DNA of 64,000 nt, taken from the NCBI GenBank assembly GCA_934254835.1, contig CAKQMI010000003.1, forward strand, positions 14,240-78,239, in the 5' to 3' direction. This DNA comes from an uncultured Clostridia bacterium. Lineage in GTDB: Bacteria; Bacillota; Clostridia; Christensenellales; CAG-917. How positions within the stretch are numbered: position 1 is the stretch's first letter; the number at the start of each line of letters is the position of its first letter. A model generated the notes under the pieces. The model was not told the DNA's origin, did no database searches, and worked only from the letters and a program-made list of their open reading frames with translations. Below, in pieces: positions 16,183-60,100 of this stretch. The translations under genes were made by a program, and so were the position numbers.

Positions 16183-16258
16183 GGACGTTTAACTCAGCTG
16201 GTAGAGTGTCTTCTTGACGTGGAGAAAGTCAGCGGTTCGAGTCCGTTAACGTCCACCA
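16183..16258 (+). tRNA. tRNA-Val (anticodon GAC), CCA encoded
   Basis: The hand-folded cloverleaf has acceptor GGACGTT/AACGTCC, D arm ACTC-AGCTGGTA-GAGT, anticodon arm TCTTC-TTGACGT-GGAGA, T arm AGCGG-TTCGAGT-CCGTT, discriminator A and CCA. Total 76 nt. Confidence 0.93.
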
Positions 16259-16292
16259 AAATAACGCAATCAAACGGTTGCGTTATTTTTTT
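16259..16292 (+). terminator. rho-independent terminator after tRNA-Val
   Basis: ATAACGCAA-tcaaacgg-TTGCGTTAT followed by TTTTTT. Confidence 0.7.
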
Positions 16293-16296
16293 GTAC

Positions 16297-16306
16297 GCTA
16301 ACGTCC
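16297..16306 (+). repeat. partial copy of the tRNA-Val 3' acceptor (GCTAACGTCC)
   Basis: 9/10 match to GTTAACGTCC of the tRNA, direct orientation. Short, so weak on its own. Confidence 0.3.
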
Positions 16307-16384
16307 TCTGCGCAAATACATTTGCGCGGGCTACGCCACGTCACACACTTCGCTTTAAAAATCGCATTATTTCTTTTAATAATG

Positions 16385-16440
16385 CTCACTCTTGCGCTCG
16401 TGTGCTCCTCTTCCCCAAAAGTACAAAAGTATCTTTTGGG
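16385..16440 (-). repeat. inverted partial copy of the 105-bp unit head
   Basis: The reverse complement CCCAAAAGATACTTTTGTACTTTTGGGGAAGAGGAGCACACGAGCGCAAGAGTGAG aligns with 17013-17068 (CCCAAAAGATACTTTTGTACTTTTGGGGAAAAGGAGTATGCGAGCGTAAGACAATC). Confidence 0.6.
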
Positions 16441-16456
16441 AGCCCCATTATTACGC

Positions 16457-16629
16457 GCTGACCGCAAGCAAAGAGAGGAGCAAGCGCTTGCATTTGCGAA
16501 AATCGAGCGTAGCGGACATAGACAACGATTGCACGAATTTTTCGTGCAAAATGCAAGGCATTGTTGCTTTCAACAAATCGTTGTCATAGACGCTTCACTA
16601 TGCAAGTAAACTTGCTCGTTCCGCTATTA
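16457..16629 (+). ncRNA. candidate structured RNA/DNA core, copy 1 (second copy 50845-51017 minus)
   Basis: About 173 nt align with the reverse complement of 50845-51017. There is a three-hairpin junction (16523-16583) and a further hairpin (16602-16615), and the stems are kept by compensatory changes between the copies. No ORF. Confidence 0.45.
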
Positions 16630-16631
16630 AA

Positions 16632-16641
16632 CGAGTCCGTT
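16632..16641 (+). repeat. partial copy of the tRNA-Val T-arm/acceptor (CGAGTCCGTT)
   Basis: 10/10 identity to tRNA positions 16237-16246, directly after the 173-nt core. Confidence 0.4.
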
Positions 16642-16775: not shown

Positions 16776-16809
16776 GAGTAGCCCCGTTAACGTCACGCCC
16801 GTTAACGTC
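16776..16809 (+). repeat. two adjacent partial copies of the tRNA-Val 3' end
   Basis: GAGTAGCCCCGTTAACGTC and CCCGTTAACGTC compared with tRNA GAGTCCGTTAACGTCC. Confidence 0.5.
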
Positions 16810-16883: not shown

Positions 16884-17003
16884 CTCCAAAAGATACTGAC
16901 TAATGGGCCCCGCGGGATACTGTGTACCCGTGGGGAAAAGGAGTATGCGAGCGTAAGACAACCGACTGTCGCTTGCGACAATCGGTTGGTCAAAAACGAA
17001 GCA
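16884..17003 (+). repeat. tandem repeat unit a (period about 105 bp)
   Basis: CTCCAAAAGATACT ... GGGGAAAAGGAGTATGCGAGCGTAAGACAACCGACTGTCGCTTGCGACAATCGGTTGGTCAAAAACGAAGCA. Confidence 0.7.
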
Positions 17004-17011
17004 ATCGGGGC

Positions 17012-17108
17012 CCCCAAAAGATACTTTTGTACTTTTGGGGAAAAGGAGTATGCGAGCGTAAGACAATCGACTGTCGCTTGCGACACTCGATTGGTCAAAA
17101 ACGAAGCA
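17012..17108 (+). repeat. tandem repeat unit b
   Basis: CCCCAAAAGATACT ... GGGGAAAAGGAGTATGCGAGCGTAAGACAATCGACTGTCGCTTGCGACACTCGATTGGTCAAAAACGAAGCA. The 72-nt body is near-identical to unit a. Confidence 0.7.
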
Positions 17109-17116
17109 TACGACGT

Positions 17117-17819: not shown

Positions 17820-17904
17820 ATTTGCCTCCATATCGGAGTTTGTGCAAAGCGCAAAAAAATATGCCACCGCATTACACGGTGGCAAATTTTCATTGTTTTT
17901 TGAT

Positions 17905-20900
17905 TTACGCATTCATATCGGAAATGAACTTTTGGAGCGTTTCCTGAGCGTTGCCAAGGTACAGATACACGCCGTTTTCGCGAGTGTACAAGGGGTTGTC
18001 AACGCCTGCGTAGCCGGGTTTCAAGTCGTAGTTGAAGATGAAGATATTCTTGCAATCCGCGACGTCCAAAACGGGCATTCCATAAATAGGCGTGCCTTCC
18101 GCGGTGTTTGCGGCGGGGTTCAGAACGTCGTTTGCGCCGATGACGATCGACGCGTCAGCCGTCTTGAACTCGGGGTTGATATCGTCCATTTCGTACAAAT
18201 CTTCGTAGTCAACGTCGGCTTCACACAGCAATACGTTCATGTGCCCGGGCATACGTCCCGCAACGGGGTGAATTGCGTATTTGACCTTGGTGCCGTTTGC
18301 GACGAGTTTGTCGGCGAGTTGCTTTACAAGGTGTTGAGCCTGCGCGATTGCCATACCGTAACCGGGGACGATAATCACGTTTTTGGCGTCCAGCAGAAGT
18401 TTGGCGGGGTTTTCGACCTTTTTGGGTGCGTCTTCCGTCTTTTCCGCAGTTGCCTCGACGGCAGGTTCAGCCGTATCGGCTTTTTCAAGCGCGACTTCGG
18501 CGGGTTTATCCATATCGGCGATGAATTTTTGCAAGGTGTCTTGAGCGTTGCCGAGATACAGATGGACGCCGTTTTCACGCGTATAGATGGGGTTGTCAAC
18601 GCCCGCGTAGCCGGGTTTCAAGTCGTAGTTGAAGATGAAGATATTCTTGCAATCTGCAACGTCCAAAACGGGCATTCCGTAGATAGGCGTACCTTCCGCG
18701 GTGTTTGCGGCGGGGTTCAGAACATCGTTTGCGCCGATGACGATTGTGGCGTCTGCCGTCTTAAACTCGGGGTTGATATTGTCCATTTCGTACAAATCTT
18801 CGTAGTCAACGTCGGCTTCGCACAACAATACGTTCATGTGTCCGGGCATACGTCCCGCAACGGGGTGAATTGCGTATTTGACTTTCGTTCCGCCTGCGGT
18901 AAGTTTGTCGGCAAGTTGCTTTACAAGGTGTTGCGCCTGCGCGATTGCCATGCCGTAGCCGGGGACGATGATGACTTCTTTCGCACCGTTGAGGCTTGAC
19001 GCGTAGTTGGTCTCAGTTTTCACTTCGACGGGTTTGACTTCGGCGGTTTCAGCCTTGACTTCGGTGGTCGTTTCGACGGGTTTATCCATATCGGCGATGA
19101 ATTTTTGCAAAGTTTCTTGAGCGTTGCCGAGATACAGATGTACGCCCTCTTCACGGGTGTAAATGGGGTTGTTGACGCCGGCGTAACCGGGCTTCAAGTC
19201 GTAGTTGAAGATGAAGATATTCTTGCAATCCGCGACGTCCAAAACGGGCATTCCGTAGATAGGCGTGCCTTCCGCGGTGTTTGCGGCGGGGTTCAGAACG
19301 TCGTTTGCGCCGATGACGATTGTGGCGTCAGCCGTCTTGAATTCGGGGTTAATGTTGTCCATTTCAAACAAATCCTCGTATTCGACGTTGGCTTCGCACA
19401 GCAATACGTTCATGTGTCCGGGCATACGTCCCGCGACGGGGTGGATTGCATATTTGACCTTGGTGCCGTTTGCGACGAGTTTGTCGGCAAGTTGCTTTAC
19501 AAGGTGTTGAGCCTGCGCGATTGCCATGCCGTAGCCGGGGACGATGATGACTTCTTTTGCACCGTTGAGGGTTGCGGCGTAGTTAATTTCGGTTTTCACG
19601 ACGGGTTTTTCGGCTTTGACTTCTTCTTTTGCGACAGCGGGTTTATCCGCTCTGACTTCCGCAGGAGCGGGAGCGGGGGCGGGTTTCGAGTCGCCGGACG
19701 TACCGCCAAGAAGGATTGCGCCGAGTTTTCTGTTCATTGCTTTGCACATAATTTGCGTCAAAAGGAGTCCCGACGCGCCGACGATACCACCGACGGCAAC
19801 CAGCAATAAGTCGTTGATTGCAAGACCGGCGATTGCGCCCGCGACGCCCGAAAGGCTGTTGAGCAAAGAAATGGTGATGGGCATATCCGCGCCACCGACA
19901 CGAATTGCGAAGATAAATCCGAAGAAGCCCGAGATAACAAGCAACAACGCAATCATGATACCGCAAAACGCTTTGATATCCATGCCGAGCACGATTTTGC
20001 CACTGCCCGCAAGAGCCGCAACCGTCGCGAACACGACGATAAGCGCGAGCGTCAACATAAGACTGCCGACGGTCATAGCCTGATGTCCCTTATAGACAAC
20101 GGGTTTTTGCGGGAGAATTTTGTGAAGTTTGCCTGCCGCGACAAGGCTTCCGATGAGGGTGATCATACCGACTGCAAGCGCAAGAGACGACGTCGTCGTG
20201 GAGAATCCGTCAAAGCCCGTGCCTACGCCGAGCATAGCGAACGCGCCGACGATTGCCGATGCCGCACCGCCCAAACCGTTGAGCAACGCAACCATCTGAG
20301 GCATTTGAATCATCTTGACTTTCTTTGCAAGGACGATACCCGCAACCGTGCCGAGTGCGAGACCGATATAGAGCGTCCAGACAGTCGCGATGTGATTTGT
20401 GCCGTTGCCGTAAACGATAATGAGGATTATTGCAAGGAGCATGCAAATCGCGCTGAAACGGTTGCCGATTTTGCTGTAAACGACCTTGCCCATCATAGCG
20501 ATGCCCAAAAGCACGCCAAGCGACAGTACGATTGCCATTGCAAGGTAGATCCAGTCACGAACAGAAGCGCCCGAGCCTGCGCCCGCCGATTTTGCGATGA
20601 CGTCCATACAGCAAATAACCGCAAGAAGCCCCGCGCCGACGATTGCCGATGCGACGTAAATTGCGGTTTGTCCCTTTGCTTTTTTCTTTGCGATCATGCC
20701 GAGCATACGGTCGGTGACCATAAATCCGCCGACGACGTTGACCATTGCAAGAGCGATTGCAAGCGAACCGAAGATCGCCGAAAGCACGACGCCCGCCGTC
20801 CCGAGATTGAACAGCGATGCGCTTGCCGACAATGCGCCAAGCACCGTCACGCCCGACAATGCGTTCATACCCGACATAAGCGGAGTATGCAAAAGCGTGG

Positions 20901-21045
20901 GAACGTTGGAAATAAGTTTGTAACCGACGAGCGTCGCAACAACGAATACGCCAAGAAGAATCAATTGGAAATAAATTGCCTTCTCAAGACCGAAGTTGCC
21001 CATTGCAAGAGCGCCCGTCATAACAGAGTTTAACGTTGATAACAT
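17905..21045 (-). CDS. pntB: NAD(P) transhydrogenase, fused alpha-2 (PntAB) + beta (PntB) subunit with three tandem dIII domains
   Basis: 1046 aa. The N-terminal about 125 aa are alpha-2-like TM helices (...GGFMVTDRMLGM). Next comes PntB dII (GGADMPITISLLNSLSG, IMCKAMNR). Then dIII occurs three times, each with VIIVPGYGMAIAQAQH, HPVAGRMPGHMNVLLCEA and GANDVLNPAA. Confidence 0.93.
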   Translation of the reverse strand: MLSTLNSVMTGALAMGNFGLEKAIYFQLILLGVFVVATLVGYKLISNVPTLLHTPLMSGMNALSGVTVLGALSASASLFNLGTAGVVLSAIFGSLAIALAMVNVVGGFMVTDRMLGMIAKKKAKGQTAIYVASAIVGAGLLAVICCMDVIAKSAGAGSGASVRDWIYLAMAIVLSLGVLLGIAMMGKVVYSKIGNRFSAICMLLAIILIIVYGNGTNHIATVWTLYIGLALGTVAGIVLAKKVKMIQMPQMVALLNGLGGAASAIVGAFAMLGVGTGFDGFSTTTSSLALAVGMITLIGSLVAAGKLHKILPQKPVVYKGHQAMTVGSLMLTLALIVVFATVAALAGSGKIVLGMDIKAFCGIMIALLLVISGFFGFIFAIRVGGADMPITISLLNSLSGVAGAIAGLAINDLLLVAVGGIVGASGLLLTQIMCKAMNRKLGAILLGGTSGDSKPAPAPAPAEVRADKPAVAKEEVKAEKPVVKTEINYAATLNGAKEVIIVPGYGMAIAQAQHLVKQLADKLVANGTKVKYAIHPVAGRMPGHMNVLLCEANVEYEDLFEMDNINPEFKTADATIVIGANDVLNPAANTAEGTPIYGMPVLDVADCKNIFIFNYDLKPGYAGVNNPIYTREEGVHLYLGNAQETLQKFIADMDKPVETTTEVKAETAEVKPVEVKTETNYASSLNGAKEVIIVPGYGMAIAQAQHLVKQLADKLTAGGTKVKYAIHPVAGRMPGHMNVLLCEADVDYEDLYEMDNINPEFKTADATIVIGANDVLNPAANTAEGTPIYGMPVLDVADCKNIFIFNYDLKPGYAGVDNPIYTRENGVHLYLGNAQDTLQKFIADMDKPAEVALEKADTAEPAVEATAEKTEDAPKKVENPAKLLLDAKNVIIVPGYGMAIAQAQHLVKQLADKLVANGTKVKYAIHPVAGRMPGHMNVLLCEADVDYEDLYEMDDINPEFKTADASIVIGANDVLNPAANTAEGTPIYGMPVLDVADCKNIFIFNYDLKPGYAGVDNPLYTRENGVYLYLGNAQETLQKFISDMNA
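17908..18405 (-). repeat. dIII-coding repeat 3 (aa 881-1046)
   Basis: AKLLLDAKNVIIVPGYG...QKFISDMNA. Confidence 0.9.
18511..19002 (-). repeat. dIII-coding repeat 2 (aa 682-845)
   Basis: ASSLNGAKEVIIVPGYG...QKFIADM. Followed by the 35-aa linker DKPAEVALEKADTAEPAVEATAEKTEDAPKKVENP. Confidence 0.9.
19087..19578 (-). repeat. dIII-coding repeat 1 (aa 490-653)
   Basis: AATLNGAKEVIIVPGYG...QKFIADM. Followed by the 28-aa linker DKPVETTTEVKAETAEVKPVEVKTETNY. Confidence 0.9.
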
Positions 21046-28156: not shown

Positions 28157-28888
28157 TCACTTCCTGTTTTCTATATTATTTATTAAAAAGTCTATTCCCC
28201 TTTTTAAGTCGTTGTAAGTTGCGTCAAAATCCCCCGTGTAGTACGGATCGGCAACGTCGCGCGTTTCGCCCGAAAACTCCAAAAACTTTTTTACCTTGTT
28301 CCCTTTATCGGGCGCGAAAAGCCTTTTCAGATATGCGACGTTTTGGTCGTCCATGCCAACCGTGAATAATACAAACTGTTAGAAATCGCCGATATTTCCG
28401 TGCTTTTCGGCAATTACTCACTTGTAGTACAAAAAGTACAACTGCGTTCGTCTTTTCCAAAAATCATCGAAACTCTCGACGGTTTGGTCTAAGGAGTATT
28501 GCCCCCGCGTTTTTAGACGAAAACAAGGCACGCGAGCGGGTTAATACTGTATGTATAAGCCGTGAGCGCAACGAAGTTTTAGTCAAAAACACGGAGCAAG
28601 ACCATAGTTCGTATTATTCACGGTTGGCATACCAAGAAACAAATCGTACTTTTCATAGTCGGATTTTTTGACGGGCTTTGAATAATGCGGATAAGTCGAG
28701 ACGCCATGCTCGTGCAGTTTTTCAAGGGCTTTCGGATAAGTCGGATTACCCTCTTCAAAGGAGCAAGTCGCCGAGGAATCGATTGTATATTTGCCACTCA
28801 ATCCCCTTTTTTGCAAGGCGTCGTTCATCATAAATTCCGCCATTGCGCTTCGACAAATATTCCCAAGACATACAAACATTATTTTCAT
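28157..28888 (-). pseudogene. low-molecular-weight protein-tyrosine phosphatase split by a 274-bp insertion
   Basis: The N-terminal part is MKIMFVCLGNICRSAMAEF...KYDLFLGM (28888 to about 28629). The C-terminal part is (M)DDQNVAYLKRLF...DVADPYYTGDFDATYNDL (28354-28157). Removing 28355-28628 plus one AT restores LFLGMDDQNV. Confidence 0.85.
28355..28628 (+). mobile_element. non-autonomous TIR element (MITE-like), copy A
   Basis: Ends are GCCAACCGTGAATAATAC...GTATTATTCACGGTTGGC (18 nt perfect, 22/23), with AT on both flanks. No ORF. About 90 percent identical by eye to copy B at 59668-59940. Confidence 0.8.
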
Positions 28889-36292: not shown

Positions 36293-36438
36293 AAATATAC
36301 AATATGTTGCAAGCGATAATTACGGCGATACCGCACAAAATTGTACGAATGTAAAAATAATATGAATTGCCTTTTTACATTCCAAATTGTAAAAATAACC
36401 CGATTGATTATTCTTTATGACAGCCGTAAATAATGCAA

Positions 36439-36576
36439 GATTAGGTCACGCGACACTATTTTCGATGATTTTTGAAAAAGGCGAGCGCAGTTGTACTTTT
36501 TGTACCACAAGCGAGCATTTTTTGAAAAGCGCGGAAAGAGTGGCGTTTGGACAAGATTGCATTGTTTTCGGTTGGC
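36439..36576 (-). mobile_element. diverged, 5'-truncated copy (D) of the TIR element, inverted orientation
   Basis: ...TTCGATGATTTTTGAAAAAGGCGAGCGCAGTTGTACTTTTTGTACCACAAGCGAG...TTTTCGGTTGGC followed by AT. It aligns with the reverse complement of the left half of copies A and B. Confidence 0.55.
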
Positions 36577-49948: not shown

Positions 49949-50695
49949 TTAGTTTTCGCAAGGCATTTTGTCGATATACTCGCAAAAATAGCAGGTTACG
50001 CCGTCTTTTGGGGATATCGCGCAGTTGTTTCTGGTGCTGTTGATTGCCGTCATAAGCTCGTACCCTTCAAGCCCGAAAAGGTCGGTTTTTGCAAACAGGT
50101 CGCTTGAAATAAACTCGGTCGGACTATCAAATCTTTGAATTTTGACAACCTTTGCAGTCACTTGGGCATAGCGCCCCTCATACGGCCAATACACGCCAAC
50201 GTCGCCCTCCTCAACGTTGTACTCCTCCTCGCTCGTTGCAAGCACGTTGATGACTTTTCCGTCATTGCAGAGCGAATCGAAACGAGTTGCGGTCATACCC
50301 GTTTTGAAATAGCGCGGGTGCGTGAATAGCGACTCGTCAACGTTTTCTTCGGGGTATTTCAGGTCGCTGTCGTTAATGCAACAATCCATATACCAGCCCA
50401 TATAATCGAGCGGAAAATGGTTGCCGTCAAACACGGCGTGCGCCATAAGCGCGCCCCACTCGCGCATACTGCAACGCACGACTTGTCCCGTGCTCAAAAG
50501 TGGCACACATCCGTCGCGTCGCTGATGCGAGTCACCGCCGAAACAATAGCCTTGCTCTCGAATTTCCTTTGCGACGGCTTCCACAACCTTGTCGCTCAGC
50601 GGTGCTTCAACATAGTCCGAATCGCCCCACCAAGTCCACCCAACTACCTTGTAGGTCACCTCGCGCGCTTTTTCTTCTTCAAAACATCCCTTCAT
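49949..50695 (-). CDS. hypothetical Cys/Trp-rich cytoplasmic protein
   Basis: 248 aa, compositionally protein-like. No motif I can assign and no obvious RBS. Confidence 0.5.
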   Translation of the reverse strand: MKGCFEEEKAREVTYKVVGWTWWGDSDYVEAPLSDKVVEAVAKEIREQGYCFGGDSHQRRDGCVPLLSTGQVVRCSMREWGALMAHAVFDGNHFPLDYMGWYMDCCINDSDLKYPEENVDESLFTHPRYFKTGMTATRFDSLCNDGKVINVLATSEEEYNVEEGDVGVYWPYEGRYAQVTAKVVKIQRFDSPTEFISSDLFAKTDLFGLEGYELMTAINSTRNNCAISPKDGVTCYFCEYIDKMPCEN

Positions 50696-50726
50696 TTTTT
50701 ATATAATCCTCAAATTATCTTGATAT

Positions 50727-50799
50727 GCCAACCGTGAATAATACGAACTGTGCCAAAACGCCGATATTTCCGTGCTTTTTGGCACAGTTCGTATTATTC
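50727..50799 (+). mobile_element. internally deleted mini-copy (C) of the TIR element
   Basis: AT+GCCAACCGTGAATAATACGAACTGTGCCAAAACGCCGATATTTCCGTGCTTTTTGGCACAGTTCGTATTATTC. The left end is intact and the right TIR is truncated. It forms a 22-bp perfect hairpin. Confidence 0.6.
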
Positions 50800-50804
50800 C
50801 TGTC

Positions 50805-50826
50805 TGGTATGGAGATGCGGGGTTTG
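50805..50826 (-). repeat. partial duplicate of the tmRNA 3' end (att-like)
   Basis: Minus strand reads CAAACCCCGCATCTCCATACCA, compared with the tmRNA 3' end CAAATCCCCGCATCTCCACCA (51150-51130). Direct orientation. Confidence 0.6.
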
Positions 50827-50844
50827 TAGCAAGCAAAGTTTGCG

Positions 50845-51017
50845 TAATAGCGGAGCGGGCGAATTTATTCACTAAAGCGGAGCGTCTACGCTCAACGATT
50901 TGTTGCGAGCAACAATGCTTCGCATTCGTGTGATAAATCACACAATCGTTGGCTATGTCCGCTACGCTCGATTTTCGCAAATGCAAGCGCTTGCTTCTCT
51001 CTTCGCTTGCGGTCAGC
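50845..51017 (-). ncRNA. candidate structured RNA/DNA core, copy 2
   Basis: The reverse complement aligns over about 173 nt with 16457-16629. It has the same hairpin architecture with compensatory substitutions and lies 112 nt downstream of tmRNA on the same strand. Confidence 0.45.
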
Positions 51018-51090
51018 CCGGGTACCGGGGTTCACGTTGCAAAGCAACGGCACGGCTTTTGCCGTGCAAAATCCCCGCTTTAGCGACATA

Positions 51091-51120
51091 GAAAAATAAG
51101 TTGAACAGGAGTTCAACTTG
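51091..51120 (-). terminator. rho-independent terminator after ssrA
   Basis: AAGTTGAAC-tcc-GTTCAACTT followed by ATTTTTC on the minus strand. Confidence 0.7.
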
Positions 51121-51129
51121 TTTCTCGTT

Positions 51130-51496
51130 TGGTGGAGATGCGGGGATTTGAACCCCGGTTCGTCCTTCTACGTCCGATACCTTCTACATGCTTATTCGGT
51201 GATTAGTTTCTCTTACCGTCGTTCGCCGACAGACGGCGGTTTTGAAGAGACGGAGAATGCCGATTTACCTACCGTCGTGAGTAAACCCGTAGCCCGTTCA
51301 GTATGACGCCGATTGCTTACGGAACAGGAACGTAAGGTCGACGTGCCACAATAATTAAGCGGCGAATGCGAACGCAGGAGCGTTCACTTTTTCGTTATTT
51401 TTTGCGTTTAATTTTAATTTTCCGTCTTTAACGCAGTCGGACCTGCGACATGCTTCTTATCGCCCATACAAAAACGTCGAATCCAAAAACATCCCC
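51130..51496 (-). ncRNA. ssrA: tmRNA (SsrA)
   Basis: 5' end GGGGATGTTTTTGGATTCGACG and 3' end GGACGAACCGGGGTTCAAATCCCCGCATCTCCACCA form the tRNA-like domain. The tag reading frame at 51405-51355, GCA AAA AAT AAC GAA AAA GTG AAC GCT CCT GCG TTC GCA TTC GCC GCT TAA, gives AKNNEKVNAPAFAFAA*. smpB is nearby. Confidence 0.93.
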
Positions 51497-59644: not shown

Positions 59645-59667
59645 AGTTCTATTTTATCCTGTTTTAT

Positions 59668-59940
59668 GCCAACCGTCAATAATACGAACTTTGCCAAACC
59701 GCCGATATTTCCGTGCTTTTTTGCAAAAACTCGCTTGTAGTACAAAAAGTACAACTGCGTTCGTTTTTCCCAAAAATCATCGAAACTCTCGGTGGTTTGG
59801 TCTAAGGAGTATTGCCCCGCGTTTTTAGGCGAAAACAAGGCACGCGAGCGGGTTAATACTTTTTGTCTAAGCCGTGAGCGTAACGAGGTTTTGGTCAAAA
59901 ACGCGGGGCAAGACCATAGTTTGTATTACTCACGGTTGGC
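59668..59940 (+). mobile_element. non-autonomous TIR element (MITE-like), copy B
   Basis: GCCAACCGTCAATAATACGAAC...GTTTGTATTACTCACGGTTGGC with AT on both flanks. Collinear with copy A. Intergenic, between the MGMT-like gene and ilvB. Confidence 0.8.
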
Positions 59941-60100
59941 ATGAATAATATCAATACAAAATTAAATCTAAATAATTGACTACAGCGGATAATATCAACA
60001 CAAAATTCAAATTGAAATTATTGACTATATATGATAATTATAATACAATAATTAAAAATATATAATTGCGCGAGGCTTCGGCTTTGACGGCGGGTTACTT

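Follow-up and report, generated by a model that had tools for sequence, protein, structure and literature searches.

Two copies of a 173-nt sequence lie in a 64,000-nt stretch of DNA from an uncultured Clostridia bacterium (the window), one behind a tRNA gene and one behind the tmRNA gene, and the question is what kind of element they represent. A preliminary description proposed them as a candidate novel structured RNA with a tRNA-like gene 110-200 nt upstream on the same strand. The copies, at 16457-16629 (plus strand) and 51017-50845 (minus strand), do align end to end, with 144 of 175 columns identical (82%) and four 1-nt indels. A search of the whole window with nhmmer recovers both at E values of about 1e-60 and no third copy. 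The upstream genes are also as described, tRNA-Val(GAC) (16183..16258, plus strand; ARAGORN and Rfam) at a distance of 198 nt and tmRNA (ssrA; 51130..51496, minus strand; Rfam RF00023, 146.7 bits) at 112 nt. The tmRNA gene was called by Rfam and overlooked by ARAGORN. We find that the copies belong to a family of structured elements that is real and well supported, with no counterpart in Rfam and no published description in the literature that we searched. The element does not appear to be a simple stand-alone RNA gene. It is probably a mobile module, nested in repeat units that derive from tRNA ends.

Known RNA families do not account for the sequence. When the window and 10 further loci were compared with Rfam 15, only tRNA and tmRNA reached the gathering threshold, and nothing overlapped the core even at E<=10, GOLLD, ROOL, 6S, RNase P, SRP, HEARO, the IS605-orfB motifs and riboswitches included. 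The preliminary impression that the sequence is not RNase P, SRP, 6S, tmRNA or a riboswitch, with GOLLD and ROOL to be excluded formally, is therefore upheld. We see next to no chance that the core encodes a small protein. It is true that 95-aa ORFs overlap both copies (16322-16609 on the plus strand and 50699-50986 on the minus strand) and that an SD-like GAGAGGAG stands ahead of a TTG. However, these ORFs differ both in frame and in the part of the core that they cover, and every frame is shifted by one or other of the four 1-nt indels that separate the copies, which makes the sequence non-coding. With no frame conserved between the copies, a protein-coding gene was rejected. The six-frame translation query gave a single database match, a 642-aa large serine recombinase ORF (locus L013) that runs past its true end and reads 130 codons into a third copy of the element.

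To find homologues, we began with a 20-mer, GCGAAAATCGAGCGTAGCGG, which had no match in viral, genome or metagenome collections because it held a variant specific to the window; the majority of copies carry GCGGAAAT. A pattern conserved in three copies led to 9 loci among species-representative genomes, and these are Clostridia MAGs such as Christensenella sp. UBA7588, UBA7571 and an 'uncultured Clostridia' MAG from the Hadza. Besides these there is one 4-kb contig binned as Bacteroidales. A degenerate pattern added 101 metagenome stretches, every listed record being from the human gut. In these 9 loci and 101 stretches nhmmer identifies 133 matches, 115 of them full length, although these are metagenome assemblies in which repeats may be mis-joined. 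Thus, the further homologues that the preliminary description proposed to look for do exist in gut Clostridia. Contigs identical to the window are also present in human-gut metagenomes, one of them a Hadza sample. Further scans of the viral collection were empty, a plasmid database gave no match, and synteny through the downstream 248-aa protein yielded no additional copies.

The homologues show that the 173 nt are not a single unit, contrary to what was first proposed. The core is a composite of GCT, a module that we call M, and the right-hand frame of a repeat unit derived from tRNA ends (GCTYCRCT, a hairpin H4 and CGYTCCGCTATTA). M is non-coding, 131-134 nt long (131 nt in the core as first described), and has constant boundaries, ...GAC/CGCAAGC...GCGTAGAC/, where a slash marks the junction. 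It consists of an invariant 62-nt 5' domain and a 3' domain with one closing stem and three hairpins. In copy 1, M (GAC/CGCAAGC...CATAGAC) occupies 16460..16591, its 5' domain 16460-16521, and the right frame (GCTTCACTAT, H4 as GCAAG-TAAA-CTTGC, then CGTTCCGCTATTA) 16592..16629, all on the plus strand. In copy 2, on the minus strand, M occupies 50884..51014 and the right frame (H4 as GTGAA-TAAA-TTCGC, then CGCTCCGCTATTA) 50845..50883. Downstream of M, 94 distinct contexts were distinguished: the right frame in 45, an inserted repeat family K in 14 and other sequence in 35. Family K adjoins M in L013, L020 and L129 as well.

The fold of the element is well supported. All the stems named in the preliminary description were located: CAACGATT (16523-16530) pairs with AATCGTTG (16576-16583) around hairpins H1-H3, and the fourth hairpin, H4, lies at 16602-16615. 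For both 173-mers the fold is better than those of dinucleotide-shuffled sequences (z = -3.4 and -2.4). In single-sequence folds of M, the 5' domain is closed by CCGC/GCGG and the 3' domain forms an 8-bp closing stem around three hairpins. When 13 copies of M were aligned with MAFFT and scored on the RNAalifold structure, 97.6% of cells paired, against 89.4% in shuffles and 24-43% with slid partners, and 40 cells were double changes against 18 in shuffles. With 54 distinct copies, in an alignment that was fitted to the structure and leans towards it, double changes occur in 25 of 30 pair columns; structure-fitted, the closing helix has 17 distinct stem sequences, H1 has 13, and H2 and H3 have 11 each. 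The compensatory changes that had been noticed between two copies are thus confirmed for the closing stem and the three hairpins with 13-70 homologues, and H4, which belongs to the frame, covaries around its UAAA loop. Since the 5' domain is identical across all subfamilies, it is uninformative on pairing. A helix in the 173-nt fold between AGCGUAGCGG of M and CCGCUCCGCU of the right frame was rejected as a part of the M core, M often being without the frame. By eye, an A-to-U change of subfamily 2 in this helix is uncompensated.

The strand that folds runs in the same direction as the tRNA or tmRNA gene. In 68 of 70 distinct M sequences its MFE is below that of the opposite strand, on average by 6 kcal/mol, to which base composition contributes, and with that qualification the original argument on polarity holds. 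The linkage itself is systematic, as the proposed comparison of homologues shows. Of the 129 matches of M with an intact 5' end, 77 are preceded within 800 nt by a co-oriented tRNA, typically at about 100 or about 300 nt, and 18 are too near a contig end to judge. The other 34 are mostly found behind tmRNA, or at the right end of an island lodged between the ...CACCA end and the unit; such islands carry large serine recombinases or, in L080, a tyrosine integrase. Wherever an upstream tRNA could be identified (77 copies), M shares its orientation. There is one clear exception to the common orientation, a diverged, inverted copy in L023. M is linked to 15 tRNA species, with tmRNA as the sixteenth context, and these include Ala-GGC, Leu-GAG, -CAG, -TAG and -AAG, Glu, Ser-TGA and -GCT, Tyr, Lys, Arg-CCG and -ACG, Ile and Val.

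These findings bring in a first alternative, in which M, alone or with its frame, would be a structured ncRNA family expressed by read-through from the tRNA or tmRNA gene or from its own promoter, the copies being paralogous genes. Strong covariation and strand asymmetry on the tRNA-sense strand, the strict co-orientation, the 5' domain kept in every subfamily and the stable tie of subfamilies to given tRNAs across samples all speak for it. Units also end in ...CCA and a terminator, as tRNA genes do; because of this ending in the 3' strand of a tRNA, the RNA might be trimmed by tRNA-processing enzymes. However, an intrinsic terminator precedes each window copy, no sigma-70-like promoter common to both was found upstream of them, and the element behaves in ways that suit an insertion or repeat better than a housekeeping RNA gene, which we turn to below. 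On the sequence evidence we consider an ncRNA family possible but would not bet on it.

The surroundings of M are built from the 3' ends of tRNA and tmRNA genes. The layout of these units was read by eye from the locus sequences. It begins with a tRNA ending in CCA and its terminator T1, behind which the T-loop and T-stem 3' strand are repeated in inverted orientation, a copy that sometimes reaches into the acceptor strand. One or two small hairpins come next, then the T-stem 5' strand twice over, first inverted and then direct, followed by CTGAC, M where present, the right frame and a tail ending in CTA. The unit closes with the tRNA segment C56 to CCA, repeated in direct orientation and often with T1 again and a second unit behind it. 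The conserved frame is CTGAC...H4...CGCTATTA, and in a second type of unit CGGCGTGATAGC...GCGGAG replaces it. In the window, T1 of tRNA-Val (a hairpin and T-run, 16260..16292) is followed by ACGCTAACGTCC (16295-16306), a 9/12 inverted match to the tRNA-Val 3' end, and by a hairpin (16310-16327), both on the plus strand. Just upstream of the frame lies an inverted copy of family K (GGGGNCCCCAAAAGATACTTTTGTACTTTTGGGG..., 16340..16446, minus strand). The left frame, GCGCTGAC (16455..16462, plus strand), is a remnant of the T-stem 5' strand with CTGAC, its GAC being the point behind which M is inserted. On the right, the unit is bounded by CGAGTCCGTT (16632..16641, plus strand), a direct repeat of the tRNA-Val T-loop and T-stem 3' strand that starts at C56 and recurs 3 nt beyond core copy 1. 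Two more direct repeats of the tRNA-Val 3' end, CCGTTAACGTC, are found at 16784-16794 and 16799-16809 on the same strand.

The tmRNA unit, on the minus strand, has the same plan. Past T1 (51092..51119), its left part (51024..51078) opens with GCGGGGATTT (51069-51078), in which the T-loop and T-stem 3' strand of tmRNA are repeated in inverted orientation. Two small hairpins (51035-51067) lie between this copy and an inverted ACCGGGGTTCA (51024-51034). The left frame, CCCGGGCTGAC, is at 51012..51022. Behind the right frame, the segment 50810..50844 consists of the tail CGCAAACTTTGCTTGCTA and a direct repeat of the tmRNA 3' end, CAAA-CCCCGCATCTCCA (50810-50826). The exact 13-mer CCCCGCATCTCCA within it, at 50822-50810, begins 23 nt beyond core copy 2; by our own estimate, the chance expectation of an exact 13-mer from a 36-nt query within about 400 nt is about 1e-4. 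Whereas the window has this 13-mer and the 10- and 11-mers of tRNA-Val, direct repeats bounding units in other loci are 11-21 nt long and always match the local tRNA. The inverted copies, and the direct copies of up to 21 nt, start mid T-loop. Direct repeats of the target gene's 3' end thus flank the units, as is expected of cis-mobilizable elements or att remnants. They are 140-540 nt long, gene-free, and occur behind most of the tRNA operons examined. In the same loci, M-free units with 21-nt repeats lie behind tRNA-His, Lys, Pro, Ala-CGC and Ser-TGA. We conclude that tRNA operon ends in this clade generally carry the unit, and that M is an insert which a unit may have or lack.

A related strain offers a direct comparison at the tmRNA locus. 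Strain L003, 97.6% identical to the window, is collinear with it up to 51130, the final base of tmRNA. Beyond this point come 3 kb of foreign, AT-rich DNA, with an rve integrase fragment, an Mrr-like protein and a kinase, and homology to the window picks up again at 50726, so that the whole copy-2 unit is missing. Thus, the copy-2 segment is strain-variable and starts exactly at the tmRNA 3' end. The strain had come to light via synteny of the downstream 248-aa protein. For a family of paralogous ncRNA genes, the absence of the unit from so close a relative is a point against.

M itself behaves as an insert. Empty sites, GCTGAC/GCTTC, stand beside filled ones in otherwise identical arrays (L013, L023, L024 and L110), and in L013 two tandem units are split by CTCATCTCCACCA, one of them without the central about 130 nt. 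M occurs in M-M tandems (L089 and L027) and as solo and truncated copies. We considered truncated copies as the ends of a longer element and rejected this, since they are contig ends or decayed array ends. The left flank of M is always ...GAC/ (once TAC/), while right flanks are varied. The GAC may belong to the frame, to a copy of the tRNA-Leu acceptor strand or to the end of another M. At tRNA-Leu-GAG loci, M sits within the acceptor-strand copy (CAAGTCTCGGTAGAC/M/CGCACCA). One identical 131-nt M is present in 21 loci, behind tRNA-Ala-GGC, tmRNA and tRNA-Arg-ACG. Other subfamilies each track one tRNA across samples, for example the AAACAATC type, which is found only at tRNA-Leu-GAG; this fits old, vertically inherited copies and tells against the reading as an insertion module that is given below. 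Filled and empty sites, tandems, truncations and the nesting of other repeats within the element all tell against a plain set of ncRNA genes.

Thus, of the original proposal of a novel structured RNA, the conserved fold, the sense polarity, the tRNA linkage and the absence of an Rfam family stand, while the element acts as an insertion or repeat: it is multi-copy, strain-variable, present or absent, tandem, truncated and bounded by tRNA 3'-end repeats. To judge from these sequences, M resembles a small mobile insert more closely than it does a stand-alone RNA gene. We lean towards a reading in which the 173-nt core represents what is conserved in a system of nested repeats, specific to this lineage and situated on the 3' side of tRNA and tmRNA genes, with M as a non-autonomous, structure-dependent insertion module. 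The first layer is the unit behind the tRNA terminator, with inverted copies and direct copies of up to 21 nt of the tRNA end (C56 to CCA); its anatomy is that of small integrase-less units integrated at the T-loop sublocation, as in CIME-like accretion. The second layer is M, which lies immediately 3' of GAC. Its 3' domain forms a four-way junction whose pairing, rather than sequence, is conserved on the tRNA-sense strand. M may then spread among pseudo-sites made of tRNA ends by an enzyme supplied in trans, and its fold would be required in single-stranded form. A role as functional RNA would not conflict with mobility. It is conceivable given that the 5' domain does not vary, that the orientation is strict and that units end in CCA and a terminator. 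The 5' domain and the elaborate junction exceed the usual needs of a transposase site and would suit a functional RNA.

We must also consider that the units could be leftover arms of degraded islands at tRNA and tmRNA att sites, with the hairpins as palindromic protein-binding sites and the fold without a role. Template switching or gene conversion would then keep the hairpins alike. The units are indeed bounded by att-type direct repeats, lie in integration hot spots and are abutted by islands with serine recombinases or tyrosine integrases. In none of these islands is the island's own end formed by the frame or by M. Against degraded arms, M and the att-like frame can occur apart, and identical M copies lie behind different tRNAs with different att sequences. 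Moreover, the four-helix architecture is kept across 11-17 unrelated stems per helix while loops and junctions differ. We regard degraded arms as improbable, and conversion or template switching as the keeper of the hairpins equally so.

How might M move? A MITE, as a derivative of a DDE transposon, was rejected, because M has no terminal inverted repeats (CGCAAGC... against ...GCGTAGAC) and is flanked by only a shared GAC. Derivatives of the IS200/IS605 family (PATEs) insert 3' of a short fixed sequence without target duplication and leave exact empty sites. They carry strand-specific hairpins, exist in multiple non-coding copies and can insert in tandem. M likewise lies 3' of a short target, with no duplication and with exact empty sites. 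Like PATEs and the TnpB omega/reRNAs found at their right ends, M is of similar size, directed by GAC and equipped with strand-specific hairpins, and its tandem insertion can follow the element's own terminal GAC. We therefore suggest, tentatively, that M may be moved by single-strand 'peel and paste' of the IS200/IS605 (HUH) type, given its left-flank-only specificity, the lack of target duplication, the apparently exact empty sites, the strand-specific hairpins and the tandems after its own GAC. It is the mechanism that we prefer, although we think it less likely than not. Against it, the ends of M seem to lack the matching hairpins of the classic IS200/IS605 kind; there are hairpins near both ends, and these are unlike in sequence. 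M also differs from IS200/IS605 elements in having no match to Rfam families of the IS605 or HEARO type and a 3' four-way junction instead of a single subterminal hairpin. No tnpA or tnpB, and no cognate tnpA-bearing element, was found within 3.5 kb of the 133 copies, and the 581 ORFs in that range include no recurrent transposase, reverse transcriptase or autonomous copy. The moving enzyme is hypothetical for this reason.

In the main mechanistic rival, M would travel as a miniature integrative circle, and a site-specific recombinase, such as the large serine recombinases of neighbouring islands, would move it. This rival owes its place to the joined ends of M, GTAGAC/CGCA, which mimic the tRNA-Leu acceptor strand: GCGTAGAC/CGCAAGC could serve as an attP resembling the acceptor GGTGAC/CGCACCA, with CTGAC/G as a secondary site. 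In tRNA-Leu-GAG loci GTAGACCGCA lies on either side of M, a 10-nt direct repeat of the acceptor strand, and large serine recombinase genes, the sole recurrent neighbour genes, occur next to units in 7 loci. There is also a precedent in the ssrA islands of Dehalococcoides, where a CcrB-like serine recombinase inserts mid T-loop, leaving 20-bp repeats, tandem arrays and integrase-less members (PMC3146451). However, only the left GAC is constant and right flanks are diverse, and a recombinase acting on double strands leaves the strand-specific, G-U-tolerant covariation unexplained. The recombinase islands are found not at M but in the interval that separates the tRNA from the unit, and a 69% homologue of the L013-type recombinase is found in a viral contig (L014) with no M nearby. 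The link between the L013-type recombinase and M is thus indirect. Overall, we think the circle unlikely.

The units resemble the Dehalococcoides islands in targeting the 3' part of a tRNA-like gene and in having about 20-nt direct repeats that separate tandem units, and they may be set beside the integrase-less units at tRNA and tmRNA genes as well as SCCmec and pseudo-SCC arrays. Unlike the integrase-less ssrA islands, they span just 140-540 nt, hold no genes, are found at most tRNA operons examined rather than at one gene, and contain an inverted tRNA-end copy and a separate structured module. The integrase-less-unit model does not cover these inverted copies, the near-universal spread over tRNA loci, or M. 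As for M, it is short, multi-copy, extragenic and hairpin-forming, with compensatory changes and often a post-gene position, as are REP/BIME/REPIN, ERIC, BOX and Correia repeats. Unlike these, it is tied to tRNA and tmRNA 3' flanks in one orientation, has an invariant, non-palindromic 5' domain and sits in tRNA-derived repeats. Integron attC sites are arrayed recombination substrates in which the single-strand fold rather than the sequence is conserved. M shares the arrays and the conservation of fold over sequence, but neither an integron integrase nor attI is present here, and M does not form a simple imperfect palindrome and is linked to tRNA ends. GOLLD and ROOL are structured and often adjoin tRNA genes; in contrast to them, M is far smaller, has no Rfam match and shows repeat-like behaviour.

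If our reading of a nested repeat system is true, Christensenella-related gut Clostridia carry an undescribed two-layer repeat system at most tRNA operon ends and at tmRNA. Because over 100 copies have been sampled and the covariation is very clean, M is ready for an Rfam-style family definition. It is also a concrete substrate for finding its moving enzyme, be it a HUH transposase, a serine recombinase or a reverse transcriptase. The palindromes of tRNA ends may also account for the way in which hot spots of integration arise, and are buffered, at tRNA genes. A further scenario, for which we see only a slender chance, is that units and M are expressed as RNAs ending exactly in the neighbouring tRNA's 3' strand and CCA (a top-half mimic), or that they form a SINE- or retroplasmid-like element with an RNA intermediate. 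In the former case, M would be part of a new kind of tRNA mimic, a structured insert replacing the T-loop of a hairpin or minihelix, which could be processed, CCA-repaired and even charged, and could act as a decoy or a spare 3' half. In the latter, tRNA 3' ends would serve as primer or target. Either would be RNA biology of a new class, linked to tRNA, in a gut lineage that is heritable. The units have practical effects too, namely broken assemblies, spurious ORFs and host DNA deposited as 'phage'. Two unverified fecal contigs in a phage database carry the unit, again behind a host-type tRNA.

The units that lie 3' of the tRNA and tmRNA terminators and host M, the structured non-coding module, also host nested copies of K, a second small repeat family of about 110 nt that starts with GGGGNCCCCAAAAGATACTTTTGTACTTTTGGGGAAAAGGAG and has its own hairpin. 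K often stands directly 3' of M, where it replaces H4, the hairpin in the right frame of the unit. In the window there is one inverted copy at 16340-16446 and two tandem copies at 16890-17110, and further copies are found outside it (L013:11960-12070; L020; L129:6175-6295). K has the look of a further insertion module.

Some tRNA-end units form a second class, which is without the CTGAC frame and has in common CGGCGTGATAGC...stem...GCGGAG directly 5' of the C56-CCA repeat, the direct copy of the tRNA end (L026:2427-2760; L047; L004:9126-9300). This motif may resemble a kink-turn or GA pairing of the box C/D-like kind. The units of this class 3' of tRNA-His and tRNA-Pro are tandem duplicates with 100% identity. 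A third repeat family is based on a long hairpin, AATAATACGAAC...GTTCGTATTATT, and occurs in the window at 50737-50798, 28352-28630, 36416-36554 and 59665-59942. Since this stem acts as the terminator both 3' of tRNA-Leu in L014 and 3' of several units, the family may be a terminator-like dispersed repeat.

Large serine recombinase genes are located upstream of units in L013 (10001-11929), L026, L103, L117 and L121, and these genes have a tRNA-3'-like end, GGTTCGA...CACCA, followed by a tRNA-type terminator. In L013, the called recombinase ORF (P0020) extends for about 130 codons across two units into M. Thus, part of this database protein is translated repeat DNA. Units also occur in two unverified GenBank "Bacteriophage sp." records from human faeces, MT835493.1 (L129) and MT835490.1 (L130), where they follow a promoter-bearing tRNA-Arg or tRNA-Leu. 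The tRNA and unit portion of both records probably represents DNA of the host or the flank of a prophage.

The tmRNA at 51130-51496 scores 146.7 bits with Rfam and its tag reading frame ends in ...APAFAFAA, though ARAGORN reported no tmRNA either here or in the related loci. In a 97.6%-identical strain (L003), the unit is replaced by 3 kb of AT-rich DNA (L003:6953-9968, against 51129-50727 in the window) that starts exactly 3' of the tmRNA CCA and contains an rve integrase fragment, an Mrr-like nuclease and a fructosamine-kinase-like gene. No tmRNA-end repeat was found at its far side.

Downstream of copy 2 of M is a gene for a 248-aa protein (49949-50695, minus strand) that has no Pfam domain, and its database clusters number only 19. 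It is also found in L004, L008 and L012; in L004 its 63% homologue is again preceded, at a distance of about 875 nt, by a tRNA-Val(CAC) with a unit of the class lacking the CTGAC frame.

The 1046-aa PntB-like ORF at 17905-21045 (minus strand) is an unusual internal triplication of the transhydrogenase beta subunit: three internal 300-nt repeats are 87-92% identical at a spacing of about 590 nt (17899-19371), and the PNTB profile matches the protein in three stretches.
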